A model generated the notes under the pieces. It was not told where the DNA came from. It saw only the letters and a list, made by a program, of their open reading frames with translations, and ran no database searches. From Lingula anatina (taxonomy: Eukaryota > Animalia > Brachiopoda), in assembly GCA_051362555.1 (NCBI GenBank), contig CM120649.1, forward strand, positions 18,862,567 to 18,926,566: a stretch of DNA of 64,000 nt. Reading direction: 5' to 3'. The translations under genes were made by a program, and so were the position numbers. Below are positions 5,891 through 60,311 of this stretch, piece after piece (within the stretch, counting starts at the first letter, position 1; the number at the start of each line of letters is the position of its first letter).

Positions 5891-7342
5891 ATGGATCGAC
5901 GCCTTATGACACTGGCCGTGGCCATGGTGCTGGTTTATGTTGGCCCGAGGGCGACTGTAGTTGGCGTTGCTACTCCCCCACAGCTTGAAGCAAGGTTGGC
6001 ACCTCATTTAGTCACAGAACCGTTGCCAGCAGGACCAGGCATACGTAAGTAGTAGCAACGGGGTTAATGCAGTTTGATTGTCGATGAAAACACAACGTAA
6101 GTTTTTGTCGCTACTTCTGTTATGCAGTGTTCACTATGTTTGCGACAACCAAAAATATGTTGCGCTTTTTGTATGGCAAGTGAGTGCGGAATACTCATTA
6201 TGTTGTGAAATACAGAGATAAATACAAGATTAAATGGAGGCCTTCATCACTCAAATTTGATTATAGCAGTCAGTAGGGTATACCCTATAACTAGATTGGA
6301 TGCATTTTTAAAAAGCCAACTTCAAAACTGAGTAAAAAGTTTTTTTTTGCTTTTACACAGTAACCGCAGGCTTCAGAGGGCTATAGGATCGTTCCTATCT
6401 CTTTGAAAGTCTTTACACGTGTGGGGTGGATGGTGAAAGGCATAAAAAGAAATTATTTTCACATTTTTTTTTACTTTTTTACTAAGCAGAACAAGACATT
6501 TAATTCTTACACTGTTTTAACTATTTGAAGCTTAAATGCAAAAATTCATGCCACATAACATGCAATATTTACATGTAGAAGTGACATTCTCATTTAAAAT
6601 TAACATTTTTATGTTTTTGTAGTTGATAATTCCACGTGTGGGGGACACGGCGATGTATATTACAACACTCTAGATAACAGAACCTTCACTTATCCTTCTC
6701 CTGTTGAAAAATACGGCGTTATGATCCTTCCTTGGATAGGAAATCCGTGGTGGGTGATGACTGAGCACGAGTTACATGGTGCACCAAATGCCACGCGCAT
6801 CAAAGAAGTATACGTGAAGTGTCCAACTGACATCTACTTTAGGGCCACATTGGGGGGGCGTGTCAACTTATATGTGAGTCTTCTTTCTTACAGTTTTAAA
6901 TACAATGAGCACCTTTTGCACCAACTTAATAACCATACCCCTTATCCCCGTTTCTCTAACAGTTGCAGTCAAAATGTTCATTACACTTAGTTCATTGCAC
7001 CATATTAAAAATATTTTTGCATTTTGCTTTCAGTATTGGGATGGCGCTGCATGGGTTCCAATCGCTACCGCAGGCCTACCAGCTAATTTCCCCCCTCCAG
7101 ATGGGACCGCGTGGGTTTATGGTACACCGAAGTATTTCAAGATAGATTGCAATATGGCCCCATACATGTTCGTCACTGTCTATCGGCACAGAGTTGTCAT
7201 ACACGCGCACGGCGAGTGGGCCGTCGGTGGCCCTTATGCAGTACGTGGTATTTGCGCGGACTTCAATGGCAACCCGGGCAACGACTGTGTTGATTTGGAG
7301 GCACCTCCTCCTCTTCCGGCCTGGAAACCTTTCTTAATTTGA
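5891..7342 (+). CDS. Secreted single-VWD-like domain protein, copy 2 (exons 5891-6044, 6623-6873, 7034-7342; 237 aa)
   Basis: GT-AG introns (phase 1, then 0) join into one open frame. It has a hydrophobic N-terminus (MDRRLMTLAVAMVLVYVGPRATVVG) and a Pro-rich linker. TCGGHGDVYYNTLDNRTFTY resembles the VWD start CxxxGDPHYxTFDG, and RGICADFNGNPGNDC resembles the VWD end. Exon lengths (154/251/309) are identical in copy 3. Confidence 0.85.
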
Positions 7343-13110: not shown

Positions 13111-14533
13111 ATGGATCGACACCTTATGTCACTGGCCGTGGCCCTGGTGCTGTTTAACGTTGGGCCTAAGGCGACAGTAGTTGGCGTTACTACTCCCCCA
13201 GTGCTTGAAAAAAGGCTGGAACCCCATTTGGTCATCGCACCGTTGCCAGCAGGACCAGGCGTACGTAAGTAGTAGAAACGGACTTAATACAGGACGCATT
13301 TGATTGCCGACGAAAATGCAACGTATGTGTTTGACACTACTGCTGTTATGCAGCGTTCACAGTGAATCCGACAACTAACAAATAACTCATTTTATTATGA
13401 AATGCAGAGATATAGACAAAATTAAATGGAGCCTGCCTTAATCAGAAAAAATCGATTATTGCAGTTAGTAGGGTATACCCTATAACTAGATTGAATGCAT
13501 TTAAAAAACCAACTCCAAAACTGAGTAATGTTTTTCTTTTACACACTAATCTGTGGCTTCAGAGGGCTATAGGATTATTCCCATCTCTCTGAAAGTCTCT
13601 GCATATGTGGAGTGGAAGGGGAACGGCATAAAAAAGAAATTGTTTTCGCCTTCTTTAAGTCTATACTCGGCAGAGCAAAGACTTGATTCATACCATTGTT
13701 TAAACTATTTGAAGCATAAATGCAAATATTCATGCCACATAACATATGATATTTACATGTAGAAGTGACATCCTCAGTTAATATTAAGAATTTTATGTTT
13801 TTGTAGTTGATGATTCCTACTGTTGGGGACACGGCGATGTACGTTACGACACTCTAGATGACAGACGCTTCCCTTTCAATTCTCCTGTTCATTTGTACGG
13901 CGTTATGCTCCTGCCTTGGATTGGCAATGCATGGTGGGTGATGACTGAACACGAGTTTTTTGGTGGAACAACTAAAACGCGCATCAGCGAAGTATATGTG
14001 AAGTGTCCAAATGCCACTTACTTCAGGGCTACATTGGGGTCGCTTGTCAACTTATATGTGAGTCTTCTTTGTGATACTGTAGTTGTAGGAACAGTAAACA
14101 CTTTTTGCACGAAGTTATTGAAATAACCATACCCCTTATTCTCGTTTCTCTAACAGTCGCAGTCAAAATGTTCATAACATTTACTTCATTGCGCTTTGTT
14201 AATATTCTTGCATTTTGCTTTCAGTATTGGGATGGTGCTGCATGGGTTTCCATCGATGTCGCAGGTCTTCCAGGATTTTTCCCCCCTCCCGGTGGCACCG
14301 CGTGGGTTTCTGGCACAGCGAAATACATCACGATAGATTGCGATATAGTCCCATTCGTACTTGTCTCTGTCTTCCGACACACAGTTAGCATACACGCTAG
14401 CGGCGAGTGGGCAACCGGTGGCCCACACGCAGTACGTGGTATTTGTGCGGACTTCAATGGCGTGCCGGTCAACGACTGGATTAAGTTGTTGGGACCTCCA
14501 CCTTTCCCCGCCTGGACACCTTTCTTAATTTAA
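13111..14533 (+). CDS. Secreted single-VWD-like domain protein, copy 3 (exons 13111-13264, 13807-14057, 14225-14533; 237 aa)
   Basis: Same splice sites and phases as copy 2. Reads MDRHLMSLAVALVLFNVGPKATVVG...YCWGHGDVRYDTLDDRRFPF...RGICADFNGVPVNDW...WTPFLI*. Confidence 0.85.
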
Positions 14534-24266: not shown

Positions 24267-25443
24267 ATGGCTGGTCATCTTGTTGCTGTAATTGTACTTG
24301 TAACTGTTCTTTTGTCAGAGAGAAGCGAAGAAGTTTGTTGTCACAGTTCGTATTTTTATCATGAACTTTGCCTTGATTGTAGCAAGGTAAGTTTAACTGA
24401 TACTATGATGCCCCTGTTCCACACCAACCACGAATTCCACGAACCGCCAGGGGTTGATACATTTTAGAAATCGTGAGGTATCTTGGGATTTTGCACATTT
24501 CTGGTAGAAATCTTGTCTCTGCTTGGGCTTCACTGCAAAATGGATGTTCAACATAGAGCACCTATAGTACTTGTCCTACATGTAGAACTGGAGTATGAAC
24601 ATCAACTGGCGTTAAATAGAAATCTGGGTCGAAGTTTTTGAGTCGATTTGACGATCTCTCAAGAATTGCATGAAATGAATGAGAAAAGAGAAGAATCAGT
24701 TAAGAACTTTAAAAATTATCACGTTTTAACCAAGAATCCTGGGATTTATGGATTCTTGGCTGTTCGTGGAATTCGTAGTCGGTGAGGAATAGGGGCATTA
24801 TACATAAACCATATGGTTCATTCCCAATGAAACTATCGTTCTACGTACTTTGATCTAACGCTGCGGGGACCCCTGCTGAATGCACTCGGATTAGCTGATA
24901 AACACGTCGGGGATCATGTTATCCTGCTTGTCCGCGAGTCGATGTGTCTGAGCTTTTGTGATTTCAGTCATTTCTTCCTAGATCATTAGATGTAGGAAGT
25001 TCAAACTTTGGGGATTGATTAGGGGATGTACACGAACATTTCAAAATTTTAGTGCAACAGAGAGCTGGTCTGCCCCTTGTGTGGTCGATTCTTTATTATT
25101 TTCACATAGTAATTTCTGTGTACTCCCCCTAGACCATAAGAGTAAGAAACTTGAAACTTTAGTGATTGATAGACCTGTCATCAGGGATGTGCATGGACAT
25201 GTCATAATTTTAATTTCTGGAGGTTGGGCTAGCCCTGGGCGATGGTCGATTCTAATTTTTCTCACGTTGTGTTTTCTGCTAATTCCTTGGCCATTACATT
25301 GAACATTTGAATTTTTAAAAGACCTTTCATCAGGTATGTGTTTAGGATTTTCAACCCATCGGACACTACCATTTGGACACTATTAACATTGTGGATATGA
25401 AAAATGGAGCAGTTCTGAAATAGTTGAGGTGTGCGACCTCGTA

Positions 25444-28980: not shown

Positions 28981-30470
28981 ATTTCTTTGGATCTTTCTCA
29001 TATGCCAATATAACTGACATCGTTTAGCGTTACAGAGGATTTAGTGAGTAGAAAAGGCTAAGTACATTTCAATTATTAATTATTTCTATGATATATTTAA
29101 CGAATCAATAGAATTTATGATTGCTCTGTCTTCTCATGTTTTATTCTCTAGCCTCCAACACTATGCAGTGCCTTGAGAGGACCAAACGAGGTGAGATTAT
29201 TCTGAAACTAATTATATAAAAAGTTCAAATAGAAATAAATGCACATTTAATATACATTAACGTACTTAGAAATTATTTTCGCGTAACTACCGCTTCCGTA
29301 GTTTCTATTTATAATGTAATCCCGTATTCAGCTTAAAGTCCGTGTGTCACCATGTCGATGATATTTTAAGATTATAACACCAATGTGATTATTATGGTAT
29401 ATTTATTCCAAAAATCAATGATTTGTTAATTTGATATTAAAGCATATTTTAGCCCCAACAAAGTAACATCCAAACTGACACTTTACATAAAACATTACAT
29501 AAAAGCAAGGAAGTTATTTACTTTTTACACATTTGACGTCGACTTTTTTGCTGATCGCCTGGATAAAACTGCGGCAATCACAGGTAAGATAATGTTAATA
29601 TTCCTTTACTAAAACTGTTGCCCTTATAATGACAATAATAAGTAATTATTAGGCCTCGCTCGATAATATAAAACAACTCAAAACACCAAGCAAAGTTGAC
29701 AGTGGAAACGTGATGTATTTGTTGAATCCCAGCACCCAGACAAAGGTGACAAATTGAAAAAGGAGCCAAATGATAAATGTTGGCAGTTAAATAATAGTTG
29801 CAATAAAAACAACACAATAATATTATGTGCATACAAAATCGTTTATTGTAAGCTTAAGGCAGTATTTCAGGAAAAAAATCTACACTAGTGATCTTTGCTT
29901 GACCTTGGCCTCCAAGCCAATTAACCTTGGTAAATGGTTCCTGCTAATTAATTAAGCTTTTTATTCTCTAAATAGCTCTTTGTTTACAACTGAGGACATA
30001 TTTCAAGCTTCTATTCTATTAATTTCAGAAAAAAAGGAATACTTGAAAATAAAAAGACCCAATTTGCTTACATTGACTTATCAAAATGCCCGTCATTCTG
30101 CATTTTCTGTACCATGTGTCACGTATACATACTGTAACTGGAATGATAATTTAAAAAAAACACTGTTTAAAATGGTTTACAGATGTAAGATGATCTTTTG
30201 TAAATAAAGACCCATGGAATGATAGGTGGGAAATCATTTTTTCTACCAAGTTTGAATTCTCAAGGAAATATCTCTGGTAATCACACCAGATTGTTACACT
30301 GTATATAAGTACATGTATAATGTTTAAGAAAGATCTCAGATCATCAAATCATTCTGTTATATTTGTATGGCATAAATCTATACACTATTCATCTCAAAAT
30401 ATTAATGTGCATTTATCAGTATTTCATGTGCTAAATTGTAAATAGCTAATAAACCAAAACTACTAGTATC

Positions 30471-31287: not shown

Positions 31288-32604
31288 TTACATGTGCATC
31301 ACATAGAACTGGGTATAATCAGTTGGACTTATTGTCAAATTTTTAAATACAACATGGAGCGGCAGGGCTAAGCTGAGCTTTTTGTCGTTTCCAAAAGGAA
31401 TATCCCCTCCAACAATCATTGCTAAGGCTTGCCTATTCCTTACATCTTCATGTCTGGTTGTTATAATGGATCCACTATCGCCTGCTTTCGAGAAAGCATT
31501 GTCACTGCCGTCTGCCTCAAAGGCCATAAAGGTGAATGGTCCATGCAATATGTCTTGCTCTCCAAAACCATGAAGTTTCATTTTAGTACGAAATTTTGCA
31601 TTAAATAATTTTCCAAATGTTGTCTTTGTCCCAGCTCCAGACTTTTGTACTTCGAGACCATGCTCAGTGAAGACACGTATATTGCATGGGATCAATTCGT
31701 GGACAAGAGCTTCATTTGTTATTTTAACACAAGTAACATCAACAAAGTACGAACTATTGTCCACGTCGGACCACTCTTTATACGTACTTGAATGGACTTC
31801 TCCAACTATTTTAGGTGATTCATTTTCTATACAAAATACATGTAATGGTGACTCGGTTTCAGATACACGTGCACTCAAAAGCACATCCAGACAATGGCAA
31901 CACGTGATACCATAGCATTCCCTTCCAAAACCAAAACATAAAAATCCTCCCATGGTGCCTGACCTTGGAGAAGTCACCTCTGCATACCCTTGTGCGTGAA
32001 GCTTCATTAATCCGTCTTGGCCCTCAGGTAGCTCATATAACTCAAAATTTAAACTACCCCTTTTCAGTTTCCCAAGTTCTCTTTCCACTTCATTTTTCTT
32101 ACCGTAAAGAACATTTGCATGCGCAATGTTGTCTACGTCGTCATACCAATAGCTGCTTACATCAGGACATCTGAAATAAAACAGCGAGCTTTTATCCGTC
32201 TGCACATTACACATGTTTATACTTTTTTGACACTGACAGAATAGAAATTTACTTATTTTATTAACACTCAGCGTAATAGGAAACTGAAAAAAGAAACACA
32301 GAGTTATAGGGTTTGGTAACAAGTAAATGAAAGGTGAGTCTAACGTGTCTAGGTATTTTGTGACATCAGTGGGAATGTCAAGTGTTGGTTCCGATTTCAT
32401 TCCCATGAGGGTCTTGACTGATGCAACTGGGGGTTCCGATTTCATTTCCATGAGGGTCTTGACTGATGCAACTGGGGGTTCCGATTTCATTTCCATGAGG
32501 GTCTTGACTGATGCAACTGGGGGTTCCGATTTCATTTCCATGAGGGTCTTGACTGATGCAACTGCCCCCTGGGCATCGGTAGCACTGATCTGATTTTGTT
32601 CTCC
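31288..32604 (-). CDS. Terminal exons (32604-32345 and 32170-31288) encoding a 15-aa repeat region and a Nal1/Ssy5-like trypsin-fold serine protease
   Basis: Motifs GTMGGF...YGITCCHCL (His), FVDVTCVKI (Asp), VQKSGAGTKTTFG, FSKAGDSGSII (Ser), ALAMIVGG and LALPL. There is no signal peptide or IVGG activation N-terminus. A phase-2 GT-AG intron at 32344-32171 happens to be open in frame, which is why the ORF track merges the two exons. Confidence 0.8.
   Translation of the reverse strand, partial: GEQNQISATDAQGAVASVKTLMEMKSEPPVASVKTLMEMKSEPPVASVKTLMEMKSEPPVASVKTLMGMKSEPTLDIPTDVTKYLDTLDSPFIYLLPNPITLCFFFQFPITLSVNKISKFLFCQCQKSINMCNVQTDKSSLFYFRCPDVSSYWYDDVDNIAHANVLYGKKNEVERELGKLKRGSLNFELYELPEGQDGLMKLHAQGYAEVTSPRSGTMGGFLCFGFGRECYGITCCHCLDVLLSARVSETESPLHVFCIENESPKIVGEVHSSTYKEWSDVDNSSYFVDVTCVKITNEALVHELIPCNIRVFTEHGLEVQKSGAGTKTTFGKLFNAKFRTKMKLHGFGEQDILHGPFTFMAFEADGSDNAFSKAGDSGSIITTRHEDVRNRQALAMIVGGDIPFGNDKKLSLALPLHVVFKNLTISPTDYTQFYVMHM
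32387..32564. repeat. 45-bp coding minisatellite, ~4 units (KTLMEMKSEPPVASV on the - strand)
   Basis: ggttccgatttcatttccatgagggtcttgactgatgcaactggg is repeated almost perfectly. Confidence 0.95.
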
Positions 32605-34166: not shown

Positions 34167-35432
34167 CACACACAAACACACACATATGAAAATTCGTGCA
34201 CATTTCGGCTGTATTAGCTCTCAAATGCAGCTCGAATGTAGTTGGAAAACTAGGAATAACGATAATGCTGTCAGAATGCAGTCTGACTATTTAGAATACA
34301 CTTCAAATGGCGTACGAGTTTAGTTCAATTGCTGGCTGAAATATGATTTCGGCAGCCATCGAGATGCATTCGAGTTGCATTCCGACTCATTTTAGCAGGA
34401 TTTGAAGTGTCTTGCCCTTTCAGTTCTCCCTCGAACGACATTCTTGCTCATTCCACCTCTAATGTGACGGGGCCTTCGGAGAGACAATTCTTTGTAAGTT
34501 CCTAGATATTCGAAGTGCATTCTAAACTTTATGAGTGCATTCCAAAAATTTTTACCCATGCTTGTGGCCGGCCCGAATATTTTGCTCATGCTCAAAATTT
34601 TCGAATTGCATTCCAAGCGGAGAAATATCGATTGGCATGGTAATTGTATTTTAACTGCACTATGAGTGCATTCTAAATATTCTTAGGGCATTCCAACAGC
34701 ATTCGAAACATTCTGATTGCTTTCGAGGGAAAACTGAAAGACACTTGTAGACACTTGTAGTTGGAAGTTGTTATCTGCGTTCGTTTCATACTGTTGTTTT
34801 AAAACTAAACAGAATCTTCCTGGCGAGCTTCATCGAAAGAAAGAACCTACGCGTTATAAAAGATAATCTAAAGCGGTAATGGTGTTGTGGAGGTGTAGCC
34901 GTGGACAACATGGGTCGGGACTAAAACCATGCGTACCGCCAGCGCTCACGCTGGTGGCACTATTAGCATTAACCCCAAAGGATCTGTAAGCCACATTAGA
35001 TAGAAACAAAGTCTCTTACTTACCTTACTGCTTATTGAAGGTGGGATTGGTACAGGTATATCTGAAATTTAATTATATTGTTTTAGTCGGAGCATAAGAT
35101 CCAATTATTTTTATAAAATTTCAACAAGCTATAACCCAAATCAAAGGCTGGTATTTCTATTGCCGTGAACGTGATAAGTCAATGATGAAAAAATGTCTGG
35201 GTGAAGGGCAAGGCAGTCCCAATTAAAAAAAAATGGTCACAGTTGAGTTTGGGTAGGTAAATTTTATGCCAAATGGGTTTCAAACTTTCATCAAATAAAC
35301 CTTCCTTGTTTCTCTTACAATTTAGGTTTATGAGATTCGACGTTATGATTCGTCTACGGATTGAAATCACTTTCTGATCTGAAGAAATCTTTTCGACAGA
35401 TAACTTCCACGTGCGTTAAAACTTTATACAAC

Positions 35433-35483
<51 letters not shown>

Positions 35484-35949
35484 TAACAGTTTTCCTGTAA
35501 ACTTCAGCCAGGTGTATCCTTTCCAAAACCAACAAGGAAAGTAAAGATGTGTCAAGTTGTTCTTGCATTGTATATGAAATTTGTGGATTACCTTGTCCAA
35601 TATTGCCAGCCTCCATCTCCTATACAGATTTAAGAGAGAAATGACCTCTGTAGTCAATAGAGTAATTAATACGGTTACCGTTGAGGACTGGATGTTACCA
35701 TAAGTTCCAAGATTAAAACGCGCGAGAGGTCTGGCGAGTGTGATGCTAAAAGAGGGATGCTCTTCTATCCAAAGTGTAGCTCTAACTGCATTCACATGAA
35801 AGTACATTGTTACAAGGGTAACCATACGTTAAATTTTACTATTACATATAAGAACTAGGACACCTATCATTGTGTAAACTTGGGATGTGAGAAGTAGAAT
35901 ATTGACATACCTATGTCACCTTTGTGTCACCATTAATATACTCAAACAC

Positions 35950-38900
35950 CTACAATATTTTCATATGCGGCTTCGGAGATGCATTCATTTTTATAGAGTA
36001 GTTCGGCAAAGGGGGTGTTTTTGACCTGCCTTGTTGCCAGAAGATTGAGATGTTCCATGATAACCATTTTGAGGGTTAGGCAACATCCAAACCATACCAG
36101 CACGTGTTAAGCCTGGGTCACACTGCGCTTGCAACCTTTTAGCAACCTCTTTACAACCTAAGTCGCAAGGAGGTTGCCATAGGTTTTAAAGTGGTCGCAT
36201 AAGGTTGTTAACAGGTCGCATGCAATCGTTGACACATGAAGGCCATTTTTTGTGCACCGACAACCAGTGCGACTAAAGATGAAAATTATCGGTATCCTAA
36301 AGGTTGCCTATCGGTCTCTTCTTGGTTGTCAGTAGGTTGCTATAACCAGTAGCATACCAATTGTAACTGCACGGTCGATTGACGGTATTTAGTCGACTGG
36401 TCGCTTACAAGTTTTTTACCAGTCGCAAGTAGTCGGCAGCAGGTCGTTAGAAGATTGCAGTTGTAACTGCACGGTCGATTGACGGCCTTTAGTATCTTGG
36501 TCGCTAACAGGTTTTTTACCGATCGCAGGCGTTCGAAAATATGTCGCAGGAAGGTTGCAAGCGACTGCAATAAAATAAGCGTAGGATGGTGGTCTATCTG
36601 GGCAAGAACTTTTTTCATAATTTGTTATGTAAGCCTTCTGAATATCAAGGTCATATATTATAATATTTTAGAAAAAGAAAACATAAATTGCATTTGTTGG
36701 CAATATATATATATATATACCAATAACTGAGTTGCCAAGGCTTTCATGTACCAGGTATTTCACACTTACGAAACCAAAAAAAAAAAAAAAAAAGGTGATG
36801 ATAAAAGCAATGTACGTTTTTTTGACGCTACGTTTATTTATCTTTTAGCGAAAATCATAGGTAAAATGCCGAAAACCTCAATTACATATCGCTGTATGTT
36901 ATTTAAAATTTGCAAAGCCATATTATCAGAGTAAACAGTGAAACAAATACAACAATGCAGAGAAAACGGAAAGTAAAAGCAATTTAATCAGCAAGGTATA
37001 ACTGCTATTTAATATCATAATTTCAACATCAAAATTATCCACTAATAATTGAACAAATCGTAAAATGTGTCCAATAGACTTAAATAAAAATAGTTTCAAC
37101 ACAAACAATTTAACATCTTCCCAGTGCTTGGTATCCTCACTACAAGGATGAGAGTGTAAAAAGTACACGATGCGCATGACTTGTCACGATTTAATTACGT
37201 TGTATTGTAAGTGGCAAACGCCTAGGATAAAAAGACAAAGGGTAAACCACACATTCGGTTGCAAATCAGTTGCAAAGCAGTCGGCGACCTGTTAGCAACC
37301 GGTTGGATACCACAAGTAGGTTTTTCGGTCGCCAGGAGGTTAGCGGTGCTGCACCGAAAACCAGCGCAACCGGATATTAACCCAGCGTTCATTTGGAAAC
37401 CACTTTGCGAGTTGTTGCAACCGGTCGCCGACCTTTTTGCAACCGGTGACAGTTGCAAGTCGCAAAGACGTTTTTTGTTCAGTGTGACCGTAACTGCACA
37501 GGCCTTGCGACCTCAAAGAGACCAAGTATTTGAACAAGAAAATATTAAAGAGTATTATGAGATTAATAAGGATTAAAACGTTTGCAAGTTTATGTTTTTA
37601 TTGCAGCACTGGTTTCGTTAGGTAAGGGTGTAGTCTTTTCAAAAGTTCACAAAACATTGTTAATTCTATTTTTAGGAAGGAAAGGAAAACTTCCTGATTT
37701 TCAAGTCGAAGTTCTTTCATCAAATGTTTGTAATCGCCTTACAAGGGGCGTCTTGCAATCCACGGGTTCACCCAGTATTTTCGAGTTTTTTTACTCGTTT
37801 TACTTCTTAGGTAAACAAAGTCAATGATTATAGCAGTCCCTTCTTTTTGAAAAGAAGTCGTTTTACTACAACATTTTGTCTTTTGAGAGGTGAATTTATG
37901 GGAAAGCAGCTACTGTCACAAGTTGGCAACATATATGTTCTGAGCGACCTTGCTGCTACCAGTTGACAAGCGATTGCTACAGTCCTGCAACCGGTTTTCG
38001 GACACCGAGTGGTTGCAGACAGGTTGTTTATCGCTCGGCGAACAGTGTGCGACTGGTAACCTATAACTTGAAGATGGTCTATAAGAGGTTGCAGATACCA
38101 TACTGCAACCTTGTTGCAACCGATTTGCGACTGCTTGCCGATCAAAATTGGCCACAGCTTCTTAATTAGCTTGCAAAGTGATCGCAAGCGACCGCCAGAT
38201 TTTGTGGTTGCAAAAAGGTTGCAAAAAGGTCGCAAGCGCAGTGTGACCCGGCCTTTAGGTAAGGTCAAACGAGTGAAACAATTAACACTTGAGAGAAAAG
38301 AGAATGTTCACACGCCATCTTCGTAGGAAACACTTTATAGCATCTAGGAATTAGATTGCACCATTTCAAAAGAATATAGCAAACAGTACAATGATACTGT
38401 TCTCAGATGAAAACAGATTCAGCGTTGTCAGAAGTGATGGACCCTTTGGGATTTTGGAAAACAGCCGGTAAGAAATATGCTCCCAATTGTTCTGCCCCTG
38501 GTCGATAGGACGCACCCCAATTAAGTCATGCATGGGGTTGTATTGGTTACTTTTGTGTTGGCGAGCTGGAGGTGGTCAACGGGAACCTGTACACAAAGAT
38601 ATGCAGCCAAGTAATGGCAAGGGACTTCAGTAATTCTGTCGAGAATATTTTAGGGACAATGACCACCCATTTTTGGTTCAGCATGATAATGCTACTCCAC
38701 AAACAGCCAATGCAACAGTAGGTTGGTTTTATGCGAACCACAACTGAACCCCGATGTCCAGCTTAACCCCAAGATCAGAACCTCATTAAGAACGTGTGGA
38801 ATATCCTTGGAAATGGATAACTATGGGAAACAAATATGCTCATACTACATTTGCATCGTATGTGGAATACCATCACACGACAGACATTACAGAACTATAT

Positions 38901-39030: not shown

Positions 39031-39590
39031 AATTCCACAGTATCCTCCCACTATTAAAAGAAAAAAACGATATTTAAAATAATTTAATAAAAATATACGA
39101 CACATAAGGTCTATAGGTATAAGAATGTAAGCTAATGAAAAAAAACGGTTATATTTTGCATTAACCACTAATTTTCATTACTTTTAGCTTACGCTGCATT
39201 TTTGTGTGTCACTTAGATATTTGTGTAGTATTTACGTTTGGATTTGAATTTCTAATGGATTTTAGAATAACGCAGCAATAGATTATGATCAACGTTTCAA
39301 TTAGTATTCCGCCTCCTGATAGACCAAGCGCAGCTTCAGACGCCATGCCACTGAAGACGTTTTGATGGGTTTAACTGACCGAGTTGACAACAGGGTGCTT
39401 GATATATATATATATATATACATATAATACACATACGTATGGGAAATATCTGCGTTTTAATAACTATTTTTGCATATGTTTCGTTTTGTTTTGTAGCTCG
39501 TACTTTGGTAATTCAGAGAAAGACTGTTCGTACATGTGGCTGTTACAAACTGAAAAGGATCGCTTTTCGTTTCTTTACTTATACTAGTAA

Positions 39591-41895
39591 TGCCCCTATT
39601 TCACACAGATCACGAATCCCACGAATGGCCATGAATTGACAAATTTCACGATTCGTGTTTGAATCGTAATCAGTTCGTGAAGTTCTTAACAGATTCGTAT
39701 ATATTCGTAGTCATTTCTTGCACTTCTTGACCAACAGGAATGGGTGGCAAAAACTTTGATGCCCCTATTTCACACAGACCACGAATCCCACGAATCGCCA
39801 GGAATTGAAAATTTGGTTGAATCGTAATCAGTTCGTGAAGTTCTTAACAGATTCGTATATAATCACAACTATGTCTCTTTTTGCTGATGACTCAAAGATG
39901 CAAAGATTAATTAGTTCTTTGGCTGATTGTTTGGCCCTCCAGGAGGATCTTGAGAGGGTAGTAGGTGGTGTAATAGGTGGGGAATGAAATTGAATGCAAA
40001 AAAATGTATGCTGTTAAGTGTCACGCGGAAGGTCAATCCAACTGTATTTTATTATAACATCTTTGGACATGTATTGATAAAGGTACATGACGTAAGGGAT
40101 TTAGGAGTTACCGTTAGCAGTGAGTTGACTTTTAATTCACTTATAAATAACTTTGTTAAGAGTGCAAATCAGACATGGGCAACTATTAGGCGAGTGTTTG
40201 ACAGAAATAGGAACCCAAGGTTAATGCAGCCTCTTTTTGATTCGTTAGTACGTTCAAAGCTTGAGTTTAATTCTGTATCTTGGGATCACATTACAAAAGA
40301 AAATTTAATAAAACTAGAAAGAGTGCAGCGAACTGCCACAAGACATATTCTGGGTAACCAAATGAATTATAAAGACAGACTGGTTGCTTTAAACTTGCTG
40401 CCTTTAGCTTATAGAAGAGAAATTTTAGACGTTACCTTCCTGCATAGTTGTTTTATTGGCAGGGCTGACCTTGATCATACGAAGTATTTGTATTTTAGAG
40501 AAAGATGGGGAGATCGTTTTATCATCCACAGTGCCAACTTCTGTAGAACCGAAACGTTTTGCCGGTCTTTTTTCAATCGCGTTGTTCCCATCTGGAACGC
40601 CCTTCCCATTTGCACACGTTCAGGGGTTGGCAGATCAATGTTTAGACGATCCGTCAGAGAGCACAATAGTACTCTTCTGGTGGAGCGCTTTGACCCCGCG
40701 AACGTTTGCACTTGGGTGGGTCGTTGCAGATGTACACATTGTCGTTTTTAGATGTACACATTGTCGTTTTTAGTACTAAAGTAGAGTTTTTATTTTTTAT
40801 CATTTGTATATCATTGGGGGTGTCCATTCATGGGTCATTGACCCCTTAGGCAAACCCTTTTGTGTACAATCTTATTTTGCATTATTTTAAAGTGACGTCG
40901 TACTATTAGTTGTAAGTTGTTTTATTATGCTCTTTTAAAAATCTTGTATATAATCTTGTACCCAATAAAGTCATTCAAATCAAAAATAATCGTAGTAAGT
41001 TCTTGCAATTCTTGATCAATCGGGAATTCGTGGCAAAAATTTTGAGCTGTTCATAGTTTTGGCCACGAACTCCCGATTCCAAAAAATTGTAATGACTTTC
41101 TGGACAATATTCGTGCGATTCCAGCCGAATCCCACGAATATTCGTAACACTATCGTAAGTACCTGTATCGTAAGTGAATCGTGAGCGTGTCGAATAAGAC
41201 CAGAAAATTGGCAAAATCTCACGCAAAATCCTAAAAGTTGGCAAAATCCTAAATGTTGTCAATTCCTGGCGATTCGTGGGATTCGTGGTCTGTGTGAAAT
41301 AGGGGCCTAATGCCCCTATTTCACACAGACCACGAATCCCACGAATGGCCATGAATTGACAAATTTCACGATTCGTGGTTGAATCGTAATCACTTCGTGA
41401 AGTTCTTAACAGAATCGGATATATTCGTATTTAGTTCTTGCACTTCTTGACCAACAGGAATTGGGGGCAAAAACTTTGATGCCCCTATTTCACACAGACC
41501 ACGAATCCCACGAATCGCCAGGAATTGAAAATTTCAGGATTCGTGGTTAAATCGTAATCAGGTCGTGAAGTACTTAACAGATTCGTATATAATCGTAGTC
41601 AGTTCTTGCAATTTTTGATCAATCGGGAATTCGTGCCCAAAATTTTGAGCTGTTCAAAGTTCTGGCCACGAACTCCCGATTCCAAAAAGTCGTAGTGAAT
41701 TTCTGGACAATATTCGCGCGATTTCAGCCGAATCCCACGAATATTCGTAACACTATCGCACCTGTATCGTAACTGAATCGTGAGCGTGTCAAATTAGACC
41801 AGAAAATTGGCAAAATCTCACGAATCCTCACGAATCCTGAAATTTGTCAATTCCTGGCGATTCGTTGGATTCGTGGTCTGTGTGAAATAGGGGCC
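39591..41895. mobile_element. Head-to-tail dimer of a PIF/Harbinger-like MITE (39591-41307 and 41311-41895)
   Basis: TIR (T/G)GCCCCTATTTCACACAGACCACGAATCCCACGAAT. The units are separated by one TAA, and each carries a duplicated left arm. The outer flanks are TAA (left) and TTA (right). Confidence 0.9.
39865..40985 (+). mobile_element. 5'-truncated CR1-clade LINE (RT C-terminal half) inserted in the MITE
   Basis: SLFADDSK RT motif, then a frameshift, then MKLNAKKC...RDLGV...SLVRSKLEF...LERVQRTATR...SFFNRVVPIWNALP. AATAAA at ~40964. ATAATC is duplicated on both sides, and the empty site is visible in the second MITE unit. Confidence 0.9.
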
Positions 41896-42137
41896 TTAGG
41901 TGCACTTTTACGCTGTAAGGTACACCAGTTGCTATATTACCAATTGTGCGGTTTTCAACACTGGAACTGGGGAATTTTGTAGTGGCCTCGTCTCCTCGTC
42001 CGTACTTTATGTCATACCCACTGTCAATATTGCCTTCACTCGCTTTCCAAAACAGTGACATTGCTTTCACAGAGGTGTTTTCTTTGGTAACTTGCCCAGG
42101 ATCACATGGCTCTGGAAGTAAAACACGTGAAAGACTA
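41896..42137 (-). CDS. FN3 exon 3 of the ANK-TIR-FN3 gene, truncated by the MITE
   Basis: Phase-1 acceptor (exon starts at 42137 or 42111). Reads PCDPGQVTKENTSVKAMSLFWKASEGNIDSGYDIKY...IGNIATGVPYSVKVHL, then runs directly into the MITE TIR. Confidence 0.65.
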
Positions 42138-42339: not shown

Positions 42340-42729
42340 GTGTCACCTGTGTACTTTGTTGTGGTACGCTAGGATAACCATTAGCTATCGCAAAAATTCG
42401 GATTTCATACTTTGTGTCAGGGAGAAGATTTTCTATATTGCACTCGTTTTGCACAGTTTCAATCTTATCATATCTAGCATCCAATATTTGGAATTCATCG
42501 TGATCAATTTCTTCTTGAGTTTGTGCCGATCCTGGCTCACTACTGTGAATTTCATATTGACGTCGTATCTGCTGCATGCCTGCACTGTCTTGACTGTTAA
42601 TGTCTGCATCTCGAACAATTCTGTACATTATGGCATAACTGTGAACAGCACCTGGAGCTGGCATCCAGCGCAAGTATAAACTATTTGTACTTGCTACGCT
42701 ATGTACAATGGTACCAGGCATTGGTGGTG
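42340..42729 (-). CDS. FN3 exon 2 (with a long acidic loop insertion)
   Basis: Phase 1-1, GT-AG. Reads APPMPG...NSLYLRWMPAPGAVHSYAIMYR...IENLLPDTKYEIRIFA, carrying the FN3 W...Y...L.P.T.Y signature. Confidence 0.85.
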
Positions 42730-42927: not shown

Positions 42928-43215
42928 CTGTATAAGCCACGCACGTGACAGCTTCACTTTTTTGTCCATTGTGTAAAATAGTTGAAATACTGCAGTTGTA
43001 TGCAGTCCCGGACTCTAATCCATATATTTCGGCAGTTCGTCCGCTGCACTCGACACTCAATAGATTGTGATGAGCTTCCTGGGCATAGTATGTTATTTCA
43101 AAGTGATCAATATTTTGACGTATTTGCAAGTCCCACTCCAGTTTAACTGACGTAAGTTGTCTTTTCTTGTTCGCCTGTGACCATGTCTGTTTGAAATATG
43201 TGGGTGCTGATGAAT
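42928..43215 (-). CDS. FN3 exon 1
   Basis: Phase 1-1, GT-AG. Reads TSVKLEW...IDHFEITY...AEIYGLESGTAYNCSIST...KSEAV. Confidence 0.85.
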
Positions 43216-44182
43216 CTGAAATTAATGACCAGATCATGATATTCGAATTAATAAACAGTCCTAACATGAAATAGGTAGAGCATGGCTTTACCAAAAAAAA
43301 AAAAAAATAATAATAAATAATAATAATAATAATAAATAAATAAATCTATAAAGTAACGCACCGCGTGTAAAAAAGCTTTTGATTTTTTGCATAAACGTAT
43401 AGCAGTATTTTTCTGTGGGGGAACTGAGTAAAGCAGCGTGTCACGGCATTGGAATGGCGCAAAACAGCCTTGGGTGCATCAAACAGATGTACATTGTCAG
43501 ACAGATTGTTGATTCGCATGGAACATTCTGCACAGTCTTATATACGTACGTCCATATCATGATTTGAATATCTAGATTGGAAGTTTTTCATTAATTGTGG
43601 TGAGCTGGCCAGCCAATAGGAGCGGTCAAGTCAATCATTTCAAGCCTTATTACCGGCAGCATAAGCCTTTCTATAAATTGCTCTGAACGAGTTACCAATA
43701 ATTGTAACATTTAGGAACATTTAGTAAGTGGCCTTCAATATTTATGGTTTTAAACATAATAAACACTCGCAATTGTGTAACAGGTTTGAAACGTCTTGTT
43801 AATTTTGTAGCCATTTTTACTTCTATGGCAATCACTGTGGGAATTAATATTTGAGGGTGTGCATGTTCTTAGTTTATATAAATGGTACACAATGGACAAC
43901 TTCATCGGTGTTTAGGGTTTTCTTAACCCTAAATTAAATATGGTACATGGGAAATTATGATTTAAGTTTTGGGCGGAATTCACTCTGGTACCAATACCAC
44001 ATTACTAGTAATCGGTGGAAACTTGAACCACGTCATATACAGACTGTTCTGTAAACCATCTGCCTCTAATTTACAGGAGGACCCCTCAGGAACAATTTAA
44101 TTTTGTTAGGTTGCAATGCCAGTCAACAGAAAACACTAGCAATCACATAATAGTGGAAACAAGAGACTGATCAAATAGCATC

Positions 44183-44481
44183 CCAGCAGGCATAGTGACG
44201 TTGGATCAGCCTTGAAAACAGGTTGATACAGTGAATTGCCGTTGATCTACCTAAATTCAACATAAAATCAGCGTTGATCCAGCCACGTCAAAACACCGTC
44301 ATAATGTGATGTTGACTCAACGTCGTATTTTGGTCCTTGACTTAACGTTGTTGTTTGGTCGTCGTGATGCAAGACATGGATTGTAATTTAAAATATTAAT
44401 TATTGAAAACGTGATACTTTGTTTATCAATACTGTAACTAACTTTATCATGATATTAAAGTGCCATATGTTTATAAGGAAA

Positions 44482-44546
<65 letters not shown>

Positions 44547-44965
44547 ATATATATATTTTTTTTTTAATTTTCTTATATAAATATGTATATAAGGATATAT
44601 ATATATATATATATATAACTAAACCTTGGAAATCCTAACTTAAAGGGCATACATACATATAAATCCTACATATATTTAGCCATCAAACATGTCCCACTGC
44701 TAAACACATCCAGGCTAAAAGGGTGTACCATGCTTAGGAGCTAAAAGTGTTAAAAAATCAGACAAAGCACGCACTTGGATATTTTTACAGTGTACGTTAT
44801 AATTGTGTACCTGTGTTTTGTACCAAAAATAAAAACATTTCAGGTCATTTTAATGACATTTCATGCAAGAATGTTGTCTAACAACTGGGGTTGATACAAT
44901 GTTGTTATCTGACGTTGATCCAACTTTCAAATTCAACGTATATCCAACGTCTTATCAACGTTATG
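44183..44965. mobile_element. Non-autonomous DNA transposon lacking its right terminus
   Basis: Starts cccagcaggcatagtgacgttg, which matches the reverse complement of the terminus at 28137. It has an internal (TA)n, and 44620-44965 is shared with 27730-28090. Confidence 0.6.
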
Positions 44966-45274
44966 GTTATGGCTGTGACTACTTGCCATTCCTTTACAGA
45001 TAATAATTTGAAAAATACGGGTATAGAGGTCCAAATAGCACTGAATTGTTGTTTTATGACTAGGTATCAGGTATGTATTTTTGTTTACTTTAGGGGTCTT
45101 ACTGATCAATTTATATGGAACCTGATGCCACGATGACATTGAAAAGATTAATAAAGTTATAAAAACACAATTTAATTTTGTTTTCATTTATCAGTAAGAC
45201 AAATAGAAAAAAAGGGAATGAAAAAAATATAAGATGTTAATTCTCTATATAACAAGCATTGAAACCACAAATAC

Positions 45275-45675
45275 CTTTAATGATATGTAAAAGCTTTGAC
45301 ATCAACGCCTCATCATCAAATCGGATTTGTTTCATCCCTCTGAGTTCTGCAGGGATTTCCTCAGCTGACATATTCATTACAACTGGAATGAGGACATCCC
45401 TTTTCCACTCTTTGGCTTTTTGCATGACATACTGCAGCTGTAGTTGACACCACTGACTTTGGACAAAACTCTTGGACAAGAATACTACAGTATGTTTGGA
45501 TGCCGTGATCGCCTCACAGATCGAATGGATTGCATATGTTCCAGGAATGAAGTCTTTGGCGTACCAACGTTGAACTCCGTGTTCCTTAAGCTGGTGTAGA
45601 ACTGGTTCTATCGCGGTCTCATCTTCGTCACTGCACGCAATGAACACGTCGTAGCGGTGTAGATCCAAAGGCAAA
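45275..45675 (-). CDS. TIR domain exon
   Basis: Phase 2-1, GT-AG. Box-1 YDVFIACSDED, BB loop KDFIPG, then AITASKHTVVFLSKSFVQSQWC, LIPVV and IPAELR. Confidence 0.9.
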
Positions 45676-45902: not shown

Positions 45903-46044
45903 CTAGCATTCTTTTGATTACGGATGGTTGAACATGAGTATATGTTACTAGCAGTGACCAGGGTTTTCAAAAATTCTTGAAATTCATTGGGGGCCTTGTG
46001 TGAAATTTTTGTCACCACCTTTGCATAATAGTCCACTGCCGCCT
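45903..46044 (-). CDS. Linker exon preceding the TIR
   Basis: Phase 1-2, matching both neighbours. Reads AAVDYYAKVVTKISHKAPNEFQEFLKTLVTASNIYSCSTIRNQKNA. Confidence 0.7.
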
Positions 46045-47694: not shown

Positions 47695-47911
47695 TTGAAA
47701 GTCGTGGAAGGTTTACAGCCTGTAGTTTGGTTCCAAAGTCTCTTATATTTGTACACTTGGTCTTGTTGGACCATTCTTTTAAGTCCTGTATTTTTTGTAA
47801 TTGGGAGACGAGGGAAAAGTCCGAGCTCATGTTGGTCGGTTTAATGGTGGTATATTCATCAGAAGCTAATATTTCAGCAAGGTGCTCAAAAGTCCTGCTT
47901 TGAATATATTC
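47695..47911 (-). CDS. Exon encoding a helical, weakly death-fold-like region
   Basis: Phase 0-1, open, with a ttttacag acceptor and gtaagt donor. Reads EYIQSRTFEHLAEILASDEYTTIKPTNMSSDFSLVSQLQKIQDLKEWSNKTKCTNIRDFGTKLQAVNLPRLS. The pattern LA..L...L.EW...L..V.L..L resembles death domains; the domain call is an inference. Confidence 0.65.
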
Positions 47912-54232: not shown

Positions 54233-54322
54233 CTGTATATCTGGCATTTCTAAACGTCTCAGCAGTTCTCCTATGGCGATGTGCTTCTTCTTTTCTGCCA
54301 CCATTCTTGGCGTCTTTCCACA
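54233..54322 (-). CDS. C-capping ankyrin exon
   Basis: Phase 0-0. Reads CGKTPRMVAEKKKHIAIGELLRRLEMPDIQ. Confidence 0.75.
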
Positions 54323-55120: not shown

Positions 55121-55219
55121 CTTATCCTGTATATTGGTATTCGCCCCGTGTTGGAGGAGAAGCTGGACACATGCCGTATGGCCGCCATCAGCAGCCCAGT
55201 GAAGTGGTGCCCATCCAGA
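55121..55219 (-). CDS. Single-ankyrin-repeat exon (99 bp)
   Basis: [33 protein letters not shown], with AG/GT boundaries. Confidence 0.9.
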
Positions 55220-55377
55220 CTGTGAATGTGTAAAATAAAAACGATTAAATATGTAAATTCATTACCCGAAATATTTTCATTTCAATACAGGCTTTGGAAT
55301 AATCAGTAATACTAAAACTTGTAAATCTGGCTGAATTTCTTCCCGTAATTTGTAGACAATAAGGTGTGTTGACTTTT

Positions 55378-55473
55378 CTACATTAAATCGGTATCTGCCC
55401 CGTGTTGGAGGAGAAGATGGACACATTCCTTGCGGCCGTTACAGGCAGCCCAGTGCAATGGTGTGAAATAACC
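55378..55473 (-). pseudogene. Ankyrin exon copy that has lost its splice donor
   Basis: Reads [31 protein letters not shown]. Compared with sister exons, the last codons plus GTGA are deleted, so the frame reads into a TAG. Confidence 0.7.
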
Positions 55474-55766
55474 CTGTCACATGGTATATAGGGTATTTAA
55501 AGTATGTACAAACATTATACGATTAAAATGAGAAAGTAAAATGATCCAGCAAAAGTAGAACAAACACGTTTTTATATGTTCCTTTGGATTTGTACATCAA
55601 ACATACGTGTAGATAATCCACGTCGAAGAAACATTTGTTTCAATACATGCTTTAAAATAATCAGTTATAAAAAAGGAGAAAGATCATTCAGCAGAAAAAT
55701 GTTAACCTCGAAGAATCTTTACCCATAACTGCCAAACATGATGTGTTTAGACCTCTTTACACCCAC

Positions 55767-55865
55767 CTCGTCCTGTATTTTGGTATCCGCCCCGTGTTGA
55801 AGGAGAAGCTGGACACATGCCGTATGGCCGTCACGGGCAGCCCAGTGAAGTGGTGTGCTCCCGTC
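55767..55865 (-). CDS. Single-ankyrin-repeat exon (99 bp)
   Basis: [33 protein letters not shown]. Confidence 0.9.
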
Positions 55866-56668
55866 CTGTGGATGTGTACAAACAAACCGATTTAACAGAG
55901 ATAATTCATGCCAAAGTAGCATATTTAATTCCTTTAAAGGTTATTGTAACCCTTTATTATCATCCAGATACCGAAAATGTTTTTTCTTCTATCTAATTAA
56001 TCAACAATGCCCCTTTCTTTGTGCTGACTAAAACAATAAAAATAAGCTCGAAAATATTTTAATTTTATATTTCATCCCTGCAATGTATAGGCATAAGCAA
56101 CTCAAAGCTTGATTTGTCAATTTAACGCCTTTTTATTTTGGGGGGAGATTACAATCGATAAGTGGCGTATTAGTAATTTCATCCCTATAAAGTTTTATCT
56201 CCAATATCGACATTTTGGTTTTAAAGTTTTGTTATGGAGTTATGAGCTCCTTATTACACTGAGGAAAGACATTGTTTTGCTTTATTAATGATAAAATCTG
56301 AACCAAGACTTTAAAGAAAAACCTCTGGCAAGGTTTTGGAGTTCTAAATGCTGTCATTCAATCGGCATTGAAAGAGTGATCGCGGGTACTAAAGGTAAAA
56401 GAGAAATTTGAGACACCAATTTTTCTGTTTTTTTTTTGTTTTTGCCCCAAAATCGCAATTATAACGTCACCCATAAGACATACCCAAATGTTAATCAATT
56501 TAGTCGCCGAACACTGAAGATTTATCTATTAACCAAAAAAATGTATGTAAGGCAGTAAATAATGGGTTTTGGGCAAAGGGTGACAATATCCGTAACATGG
56601 AGAAAATTGGAGCTTCCCGTAAATGTGCATTTAACCATATGTACGTATTCACACTATTCTACACTCGC

Positions 56669-56773
56669 CTCATCCTGTATAGGCCTATTAGTATCCGCCC
56701 CGTGTTGGAGGAGAAGCCGGACGCATTCTGTATGGCATTTACCTGCAGCCAAGTGAAGTGGTGTCCACCCAAA
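56669..56773 (-). CDS. Single-ankyrin-repeat exon (105 bp, GC donor)
   Basis: [35 protein letters not shown], with donor GAG|GCGAGT and an in-frame 6-bp insertion. Confidence 0.7.
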
Positions 56774-56983
56774 CTGCAGGTTTGTAGAAACGATGTGATT
56801 TTTTTTTTGTTATCATAACTATTTAATATATTTTTATTCGTGTTTCACTTTTAAATGCTCGACTAATATTAAAATTTCTCAAAATTTTTGTACACAATCT
56901 ATGTTTATGGGACCTTGGGGCTGGAGGGTCGATACATACTATTAATATTACGGAAAATGTGGCTCACTGCATTACTGTATATA

Positions 56984-58643
56984 CAGACTTGACATTTAAT
57001 ATGGAATATTTTTTTCCAAATAATTTTTCATCAGTTTTTTCCTATTTTGCTGACTGATAAATGAAAATAAGGCTTAAAATTGGGTTTTAATAACTTTTAA
57101 TTATCCTTTTGATGTCATTGTGTCTTCAGTTCATTAATGGAATTCGCCAGAGAAGCAAACAAAAACACATTGCCTATTCTATGTCATACGACAACAATTA
57201 AAAGAGATATTTTGGATCTCCACATTTTCCAAATTATTTTCTGTAAAAGAGTTACACGCCTCACAAAGAACCCCCATGTCAGTGTCTAGTCACAGTAACG
57301 GTCGCTGTTACGCTTGACCTCTTCTGTCTGCTACCAGGGCTCTCAAGGGGCAAGGCATTCCTTGGGTTAGGTTTTTAGAGTTAAATCTGGAATAACATTC
57401 CAGGCATCGGTCAAAATCTGTCCAATTTGGTCCAGTTTTGTTGTAGGACATGTAGGCCATTGATTCGGCGAGTAATGGCCTACCCACATATTGTCTATGT
57501 GGTTCAAATGTGGCGATTTTGATTACCAAGGTAGCTGCTCATTCCCTTGGTTCTGTAAGTAATCTGCTTTTAAAAGTGCTCTGTGTGTACCGGCAATTTC
57601 ACCGTGCAACCTAAAATTGTTCCTAAGGTGCCCCCTGTCAAATGATTGTCAAGTGGTTCCCAGATTATTCCTTTATTTGATCTGGTTCAGGTTTTCGTGG
57701 ATGACCATCATTGGTGTTTTGGCACCAATGTGGTATCCGCTCCAATTACCGACGCTGTTAATGAACTTAGTCACTTTAAACGCGGCACACGCTTAGTTGT
57801 TGGCCTCTTCTGGATGTCTGTAAATTCTGTTTTGACAAGTTGAGAGGCATAGGTGAAAACTGACCTCAATAAAGAAAGCCACGACTTTTCAGTGTTCAAC
57901 TCAGAAACAGTCAAGGTCCCCAATTCATTAGAGAAACATACAGCGATGTTTTGCTGTTTACAGTGGGTTCCCCCGAGGTCGTCTGGTATTCTAACCAGCT
58001 AAAACCAGTTTGGTGTTCTCTAAGGGCCTTGAAAAATGCGTTTTGGTGGCAATTTACCCCTCATTCTGAACGGACTGGGTGGTTTTTGTTTAGTTGCAAC
58101 AACATATCCCGACAGACAGTACGTCCTGTACCCTGGTGGTAAGATTTCAATACATTGGGTGTGGTCTCTGTGTAGGTGCATCAGTCTGGACATTACTCTA
58201 TTAAACTGTGCGGACCGTTTCGTTTGGCGCAATTATCTGTCTGACAATGCCTGGCTTTTTCGAGCCATTCTGCCACAGATTAACAAATTTGCGGAGCAGT
58301 GCATAGCTCATTTTACACCTTGCAAAACTGACCACTTGCATGCCAAATTTCAAATTCATCTATGCAGTAGTTACCGACATATGGATACTTTTTTGGAAGA
58401 ACCATGCTTTGCCAAAGCCAAGCTTTGACCTGCCCAAAGGAGCACTACCCAATTAAATCACTGCATATTACATAATGCAGCAGCGCAACAAACCTGGAAT
58501 TCAGTGAATTGGAAGTGACACACCTGACTACACACTTCTCCATTCACATATCTTATATGAGATCTGAGTTTTTGAAAAAAGGATGCATTTTTACCAGGGC
58601 ATACCTTCTAAACTGAAATATTCCATATTAAATGTCAAGTCTG
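56984..58643 (-). mobile_element. Full-length but decayed Tc1/mariner element (1.66 kb)
   Basis: TIR CAGACTTGACATTTAATATGGAATATTT at both ends with TA flanks. Degenerate transposase on the - strand: GAKTPMMVIHENLN, THRALLKADYLQNQG, LPW*SKSPHLNHIDNMW, DAWNVIP, NLTQGMP..LRALVADRRG. Confidence 0.85.
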
Positions 58644-58804
58644 TATATTTACAAACAACATGATTAAACTGAGATAATTTATGTTGACAAATAAGTATAT
58701 TTTCTTGCAGGTTTTGAAAAAAATTTAGTCTTGAATTAAATCAAAGTAGGGGATCAGAGAGGCGATACCGCCTCCGGGTATCGTACCACCAGCTGGAGTA
58801 AGCG

Positions 58805-59697: not shown

Positions 59698-59702
59698 TAA
59701 AA

Positions 59703-60093
59703 AAACAAGAGGTCTCTAGCATTAGCGGTTCCAGAATTAGAGACAGTTTTCAGTTTCGGCATCTACATGTAGTGGCCGCTGCTCCCGTGAAAATGCACCT
59801 GTTGACCCCCCCCAAAACTCACGGAGATGAAAGAGGACCCTAATGGTAACGCCTGCCAATAATATTATAGGTGGGGTCTGTGCAGTTTCTGAATATCGGC
59901 GCATCGACGAAGCCCACATTTTACGTGGATTGAGTTGAGATTATACGTGACCTAAAACCAAAAGATGGGTACGAAGGCCCTTGTAGTCTAGGAGGAGAAG
60001 CGGTAACAGTGACGTGGCGCCGGAGCCGACGGAACGGATGGGTCGGTACTAAAACCATGTGTACCGCCAGCGTCTACGCTGGAGGTACAATAA
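59703..60093 (+). mobile_element. Helentron/HINE-like element
   Basis: Begins aaacaagagg and ends with the hairpin gtaccgccagcg-tcta-cgctggaggtac. Its 3' end is shared with ~34870-34960. Confidence 0.5.
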
Positions 60094-60212
60094 TCAATTA
60101 TCATATCTTGTTAATTTGGCATAGTTTCTTGTAGTAAATGACGGAATTTGTAGCTTAGTTTTAAAACCTGTACATGTAACCATATTGCTTTGTCAAAATA
60201 TTCTACACTCAC

Positions 60213-60311
60213 CGCAGTCTGTTTATTGATATCCGCACCATGTTGGAGGAGAAGCTGGACACTTTGTGTGTTGCCAAAGGAAGCAGCATAGTGAAGTGGT
60301 GTCCATTCAGA
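60213..60311 (-). CDS. Single-ankyrin-repeat exon (99 bp)
   Basis: [33 protein letters not shown]. Confidence 0.9.

Follow-up and report, generated by a model that had tools for sequence, protein, structure and literature searches.

NAL1- and Ssy5-type proteases are signalling switches that have been studied in plants and fungi. Rice NARROW LEAF 1 (NAL1; PDB 7Y77, 8PN2, 8PMM; PF25819) is an intracellular two-barrel serine protease with the triad H234, D291 and S385, and it forms a stand-alone hexameric cage (PMC12012508). Fungal Ssy5 (S64, PF08192) and Aspergillus SltB are cytosolic signalling proteases of clan PA (PMC4985261, PMC5567314); SltB carries an Ssy5-like protease at its C-terminus, which releases itself from a pseudokinase by cleavage and goes on to activate a transcription factor (PMC4985261). 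Ssy5 has been reported as fungal, and a weak S64 match in Crassostrea gigas was doubted by the authors of the 2017 survey that lists it (PMC5567314). In prokaryotes, death-like-domain/trypsin and TIR conflict systems fuse adaptor domains to swappable effectors, including trypsin-like peptidases; the consulted parts of that account describe no animal TIR-FN3-protease fusion (PMC8195603).

Two further groups are close to the gene described here. Bacterial NAL1-like proteases, represented by 49 domains from GTDB loci (L003-L082), align in seven collinear blocks, with the triad among their 14 invariant columns; most have Ig-like arms or a short N-domain in place of TIR. Acidobacteria (L005, L006, L009, L024 and other Terracidiphilus/Acidobacteriaceae loci) encode proteins of 700-800 aa in which Ig-like arms surround such a protease. 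Lingula anatina itself has ankyrin-TIR proteins (LOC106157757, LOC106176922 and one more) of 313-415 aa, in which ankyrin, helical and TIR modules follow one another and the chain stops after TIR, without FN3 or protease.

Here, we report a protease of this kind in a 64-kb window of Lingula anatina DNA (the window being the whole stretch that was analysed). It resembles NAL1 in being a probably intracellular two-barrel serine protease with His, Asp and Ser at like spacing, but the two are only ~15% identical, no ATP-binding N-domain was detected here, the Pfam score is under the cut-off, and the brachiopod domain is likely preceded by ankyrin, TIR and FN3 modules. The blocks and invariant columns of the bacterial proteases are all present, whereas Ala-Gly replaces Arg-Thr after Lys-x-Gly and the His loop is Cys-rich. 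Unlike Ssy5 and SltB, the gene has no Ssy5 pro-domain or pseudokinase and its S64 score is under the cut-off; SltB may still serve as the best working analogy. It shares its module order with the Lingula ankyrin-TIR proteins, which lack its FN3 and protease modules and keep a TIR glutamate that is absent from it. We regard it as a real domain, and as a new architecture of a known kind of protease. A literature search, made with partly broad queries and covering titles and the openings of abstracts, turned up no account of either an animal NAL1-like protease or an ankyrin-TIR-FN3-protease architecture.

A protease behind TIR, if true, would be a direct serine-protease output of invertebrate Toll-type signalling, beside caspases, and the fusion would echo the bacterial conflict systems with their swappable effectors behind adaptor domains. 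The case is weakened in that the fusion is a prediction and this copy carries a MITE. Because the protease domain scores under every library cut-off, routine annotation will miss genes of this type.

The protease exon and its relatives

The protease is encoded on the minus strand, where 32170-31288 carries 293 codons without a stop (32169-31291 translated); the plus strand of the same stretch has many stops. A tttcag acceptor (32172-32171) precedes the exon and a TAA (31290-31288) ends the frame. The five motifs named in the earlier note, GTMGG (31959-31945), TCCHCL (31905-31888), VDVT (31743-31732), KSGAGTKTTFG (31644-31612) and FSKAGDSGS (31494-31468), were all located in one stop-free 883-bp stretch, as it had described without naming the strand, and the catalytic codons start at 31896 (His92), 31740 (Asp144) and 31476 (Ser232). 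The frame is not a product of chance: in each of 15 simulated 64-kb sequences (order-3 Markov), the longest open frame was 138-186 codons. It remains open upstream as far as 32604, giving 438 codons. Because the presumed intron at 32344-32171 is in frame and free of stops, and its sole fitting donor is weak, the exon may measure either 883 or 1,317 bp, its 5' end depending on whether that stretch is an intron; stop-free 58-codon windows make up 4.4% of 34,500 intronic windows. A 31-nt micro-exon within 32171-32344 was ruled out by a stop in the phase required.

Among 24,736 Pfam families only two matched the protease, both below their cut-offs: Peptidase_S64 (PF08192; E 0.011; 12.8-14.7 bits over ~80 residues against a gathering score of 23.6) and Nal1_C (PF25819; E 0.034; 12.2-13.7 bits against 26.1). 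Neither phmmer on 1.84 billion representatives nor word searches with the protease (514-2000 aa, and 161-513 aa at E 10) turned up a sequence relative, and there was no direct match in PDB sequences, metagenome scans or GTDB locus scans. Plasmids and phages yielded tblastn matches at E 3-8 only, and the two that were examined lay outside protease genes.

A bridge to NAL1 came from bacteria. GTDB was scanned for the motif coding F-S/T-x-x/A/P-G-D-S-G-S, which returned at least 120 loci; among the motif loci listed, 49 domains in which the upstream motifs were also present were retained, and alignments of 35 (A1), 26 dereplicated (A2) and 39 domains (A3) were made. All ten bridge sequences tested matched Nal1_C, seven of them above the cut-off, and three of eight trimmed domains also scored under the Nal1_C gathering cut-off. 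Searched against the PDB, the bacterial profile retrieved rice NAL1 first (E 1.4e-17; next family 6.6e-7). The brachiopod protease scored 36.2 bits on the 49-domain profile. Since the bacterial set had been chosen on a motif common to the protease, shuffling and masking controls were run: 300 motif-keeping shuffles reached at most 18.7 bits, and with the motif masked the protease still scored 8.2 bits, whereas 300 shuffles gave no more than 0.9. The first 160 N-terminal residues alone gave only 2.9 bits. Residues 70-282 matched the bacterial family with an hhalign value of 95.8% (E 8e-9); identity to its members is 16-24%.

All 36 alignment rows are identical in fourteen columns, including those of His92, Asp144 and Ser232, which map onto the triad segments of NAL1 (spacing 52/88 here, 57/94 in NAL1). 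The series GT.G, H, D, K.G..T..T.G, F...GDSGS, hydrophobic-GG and terminal helix is complete in the protease. An Atlas search, whose ranking is independent of the bacterial alignment built here, placed it with an unnamed eukaryotic cluster of 56 members (0.98), in which Mollusca are commonest among the five members of known phylum; bacterial Nal1_C clusters came next (0.97 and 0.96; 16-19% Nal1_C members).

The earlier note had proposed a non-S1A domain of the NAL1/Ssy5 type. The non-S1A, NAL1-like part holds: the three catalytic residues occupy invariant columns, neither Trypsin nor Trypsin_2 matches in Pfam, the serine motif is GDSGS and not GDSGG, and Met73 stands at the position of Cys42, the partner of Cys58 in the S1A bridge. 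Membership of Ssy5/S64 does not, with 14.7 bits at best against a cut-off of 23.6, and upstream exons that encode ankyrin, TIR and FN3 and not the 381-aa Ssy5-type pro-domain of a single-domain fungal protein. As a candidate NAL1_N domain (PF25608), the segment before GTMGG gave no match to that family and no score on a 15-sequence bacterial N-domain profile; it may be the autoinhibitory pro-region that the earlier note had suggested. The protease belongs to clan PA, with a predicted trypsin fold, and is not an Ssy5; by sequence comparison it is NAL1-like without formal Nal1_C membership, and we hold with high confidence that the exon encodes a NAL1-like domain with an intact triad.

Structure prediction from the single sequence was uninformative (pLDDT 34). 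A model of residues 46-293 guided by 39 bacterial rows reached pLDDT 72 and pTM 0.74, with model residues 1-23 and 56-92 unreliable and no confident prediction for the segment before GTMGG. In Foldseek, Streptomyces proteases and NAL1 ranked together (E ~2e-6; NAL1 TMq 0.45-0.54), a match that is not independent, the guiding alignment being of NAL1-like bacteria. All of the top 50 VIA matches were trypsin-fold chains. Deg1 (Z 13.7, 166 aligned), L5 (13.3, 165) and NAL1 (13.2 and 13.0; 202 and 205 aligned, rmsd 3.9 and 4.2) led; NAL1 gave the longest alignment, 202-205 of 248 model residues, with a Z tied with Deg1, L5 and DegS, and S1A chains scored lower (Z at most 10.8). FAM111, which the earlier note had named for comparison, was absent among the Foldseek and VIA matches listed. 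A two-barrel chymotrypsin fold is predicted, as is the catalytic geometry.

Upstream exons and predicted architecture

The earlier picture of the gene was incomplete, having missed both the ankyrin, TIR and FN3 exons upstream and the MITE that interrupts the third of the FN3 exons. Sixteen pieces on the same strand join in frame into 1,159 aa without a stop (Table 1), in the order six ankyrin exons, a helical domain of two exons, TIR, three FN3 domains, a micro-exon, a repeat linker and the protease. The front half, from ankyrin to TIR, is fixed by homology to Lingula proteins, and the back half (micro-exon, linker donor) was selected to fit splice site and phase. We consider the fused ankyrin-helical-TIR-FN3x3-linker-protease architecture likely.

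Table 1. Features of the locus in the 64-kb window, in the direction of the gene
Feature	Position	Strand	Remarks
Ankyrin exon, most upstream seen	60552-60650	minus	
Ankyrin exon, 99 nt	60213-60311	minus	phase 0-0
Ankyrin exon, 105 nt	56669-56773	minus	GC donor
Ankyrin exon, 99 nt	55767-55865	minus	phase 0-0
Decayed ankyrin exon	55375-55473	minus	donor lost, in-frame stop; excluded from model
Ankyrin exon, 99 nt	55121-55219	minus	phase 0-0
Capping ankyrin exon	54233-54322	minus	phase 0-0
Helical domain, first exon	47695-47911	minus	53-57% identical to Lingula paralogues
Helical domain, second exon (between ankyrins and TIR)	45903-46044	minus	phase 1 to 2
TIR exon	45275-45675	minus	TIR_2 E 7e-21; phase 2 to 1
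First FN3 exon	42928-43215	minus	fn3 E 2e-7; phase 1-1
Second FN3 exon	42340-42729	minus	fn3 E 1.4e-9; phase 1-1
Third FN3 exon, 5' part	41896-42111	minus	Pfam fn3 E 4.6e-5; phase 1
Insertion in third FN3 exon	39591-41895	.	2,305 bp; two tandem MITE copies, 39591-41306 and 41310-41895; inverted ends, TAA/TTA flanks
Third FN3 exon, 3' part (last strand)	39534-39590	minus	phase-1 donor
Candidate Pro-rich micro-exon, 38 nt	35024-35061	minus	phase 1 to 0; bridges FN3 exons and linker; picked by strong splice sites and phase
Linker exon	32345-32604	minus	four tandem repeats of 45 bp, encoding 15-aa units rich in Pro, Ser, Met, Glu, Lys; phase 0 to 2
Presumed intron, 174 nt	32171-32344	minus	in frame, stop-free; possibly retained or inside one larger exon
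Terminal exon	31288-32170	minus	NAL1-like serine protease domain, preceded by an N-terminal segment of ~55-70 aa

The best matches of the TIR exon were three Lingula anatina proteins at 69% identity (four matches among 50 candidates), and the same three match the ankyrin, helical and TIR exons collinearly. They begin directly with ankyrin repeats. The start-codon exon of the gene was not found within the window. Over the 1,069 aa of the exon model the highest 19-residue hydropathy is 1.1, with no membrane segment, the first exon lying outside the window. This agrees with the intracellular location that the earlier note had proposed; its word "active" is uncertain for this copy, with a MITE in the third FN3 exon.

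Glutamate of the WC..EL helix is catalytic in NADase TIRs. The TIR encoded here has Gln at that position (codon at 45440), and all three Lingula paralogues have Glu. The middle helical domain looks death-fold-like by eye. As a death domain it found no support: Pfam gave no Death, CARD or DED match, a four-row profile matched nothing in the PDB, and Atlas reached at most 0.82. A 64-codon frame at 35592-35783 (Transmemb_17 E 0.011, under the cut-off) was kept out of the gene model, although it may be an exon. The ankyrin exons at 55121-60650 (minus) are duplicated together with flanking intron sequence, are 73-89% alike at aligned sites, and include one decayed copy; the array has undergone exon-level turnover of repeats.

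The insertion in the third FN3 exon and the RNA reads

The two tandem MITE copies that interrupt the third FN3 exon align with 541 matches and 31 mismatches, and the first contains a 1,127-bp piece with a 6-bp repeat at its ends that is missing from other copies. We take the MITE to be PIF/Harbinger-like and the 1,127-bp piece to be LINE-like. Reading through into the MITE meets a stop after 22 codons, and omission of the third FN3 exon, which is phase 1-1, preserves the frame (1,069 aa, no stop). As judged from the sequence, the full chain would be obtainable in this copy only by skipping the broken exon. Other signs of decay are an ankyrin exon that is dead and another with a GC donor, the weak donor of the linker, and the change of the TIR Glu to Gln.

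Further repeats were seen in the window. The 586-bp MITE (internal 168-bp repeats) is abundant in RNA reads from other copies, and a diverged piece of it lies at 24659-24798. A second element at 36109-38255 has 50-bp inverted repeats at its ends and a 100-bp internal tandem repeat. Two LINE-type frames, at 39954-40751 (plus) and 63156-63737 (minus), have no Pfam match at E 0.01; presumably they correspond to the C-terminal part of LINE reverse transcriptases.

RNA was compared with the window in seven of nine raw-read runs, using 6-30% of each, at likeness thresholds of 90% and 95%. At 90%, one run (X7) covered the protease exon bins to a depth of 0.5-0.9 and the FN3 bins to 0.1-0.25, with repeat-free intron bins empty, and a second (X9) had fewer reads on the same exons. 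The X7 reads on protease and FN3 exons vanish at 95%; therefore the X7 and X9 reads stem from a diverged allele or paralogue. In X2, about one read pair at 95% falls on the 3' end of the protease and is oriented as a minus-strand transcript would require. Four of the seven runs had no reads on the protease exon (X1 and X4 at 90%, X5 and X8 at 95%), and among the joints listed for the seven runs, each read in part, there was no exon-exon joint of the gene. A close copy of the protease gene is weakly transcribed, and the fusion transcript remains a prediction. The stretch 34912-34965 is common to very abundant transcripts (more than 1,000 partly fitting reads in X1) and is probably a repeat in untranslated regions.

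Proposed mode of action, origin and alternatives

We somewhat favour reading the locus as encoding a cytosolic, clustering-activated immune protease with a functional product, possibly damaged in this copy. The protease would be the last module of the ankyrin-helical-TIR-FN3x3-linker-protease protein. Its variable ankyrin repeats may bind a trigger or partner, and the helical domain and Glu-less TIR could then dock on a TIR assembly, the TIR acting as scaffold and not as enzyme. Such clustering would gather protease domains, and the protease might free itself by cutting the repeat linker, as SltB does from its pseudokinase, before cutting a signalling or cell-death substrate. Likely, an ankyrin-TIR paralogue acquired the FN3 and protease exons at the phase-1 junction that follows its TIR. 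Extended to lophotrochozoans, an idea that we put forward tentatively and do not expect to hold in full, this would be an undescribed caspase-independent proteolytic TIR arm, with a NAL1-type cassette exon-shuffled onto sensors or adaptors; in the present gene the catalytic Glu of TIR would have been traded for a protease output triggered by TIR-filament clustering.

The earlier note had suggested that a single-exon domain could have been shuffled in or acquired horizontally. Because the protease exon (GC 0.405, GC3 0.34) matches the FN3 exons (GC 0.41-0.45, GC3 0.30-0.39), identity to bacterial proteases is low at 16-24%, and each domain has its own exon, exon shuffling within animals appears the simpler origin. 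Recent horizontal acquisition is not supported, in view of the same figures and of an Atlas neighbour that is eukaryotic, most often molluscan. One exon per domain is the rule in this gene, for TIR and for each FN3. It is highly improbable that the protease came in recently with a bacterial, viral or transposon-borne insert, or that it is of the ordinary S1A or FAM111 type. A large single exon, bacterial origin of the nearest Pfam-labelled relatives and the occurrence of the same fold in viral proteases might suggest it, but besides the composition, identity and cluster placement just given, plasmids, phages, GTDB and metagenomes hold no real match, viral proteases reach a TMq of at most 0.47 against 0.45-0.54 for NAL1, and the lack of a Trypsin match in Pfam speaks against S1A.

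The prediction of one fused gene has two competitors. The locus could comprise two tandem genes: an ordinary ankyrin-TIR gene that ends by read-through of the TIR donor and, next to it, a gene for the protease, with or without FN3, that has its own first exon. All three Lingula paralogues terminate shortly after TIR, read-through of the donor runs into a stop 12 codons on, the third FN3 exon and the linker exon are kept 7 kb apart by repeat-rich DNA, and no joint was seen in RNA reads. Yet the tail exon of the paralogues is missing (the post-TIR exon of paralogue P0002 has no match within the 64 kb), the TIR donor (AAG/GTATTT, phase 1) is followed 2 kb away by a first FN3 acceptor of the same phase, which belongs to the next recognisable coding exon, and no start or signal exon is evident in 43216-45274, where small exons are possible; we judge this arrangement quite unlikely. 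Somewhat unlikely, in our view, is a recent pseudogene of the fusion, or a null allele, in which the MITE truncates the chain before a protease exon that has not yet decayed, with working copies elsewhere in the genome or population. The stop inside the MITE, the other lesions (an ankyrin exon lost, a GC donor, Gln for Glu in TIR) and the near-absence of RNA at 95% likeness, though reads of 90-95% exist, would fit a gene already lost. Against this, the remaining modelled exons (~3.2 kb) are all open and in phase, the broken FN3 exon can be skipped, about one read pair does match, and the MITE copies, differing at 31 of 572 sites, would if they diverged in place have allowed time enough for breaks to be expected.

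Rfam gave no match anywhere in the window. Small exon-like pieces with good splice sites at 29150-30190 (plus) suggest that a neighbouring gene runs towards the 3' end of the protease. Two similar exon-like frames at 6604-7342 and 14075-14533 (plus) end in CG/RG-x-CADFNG and have no Pfam match; they resemble duplicated von Willebrand D pieces.
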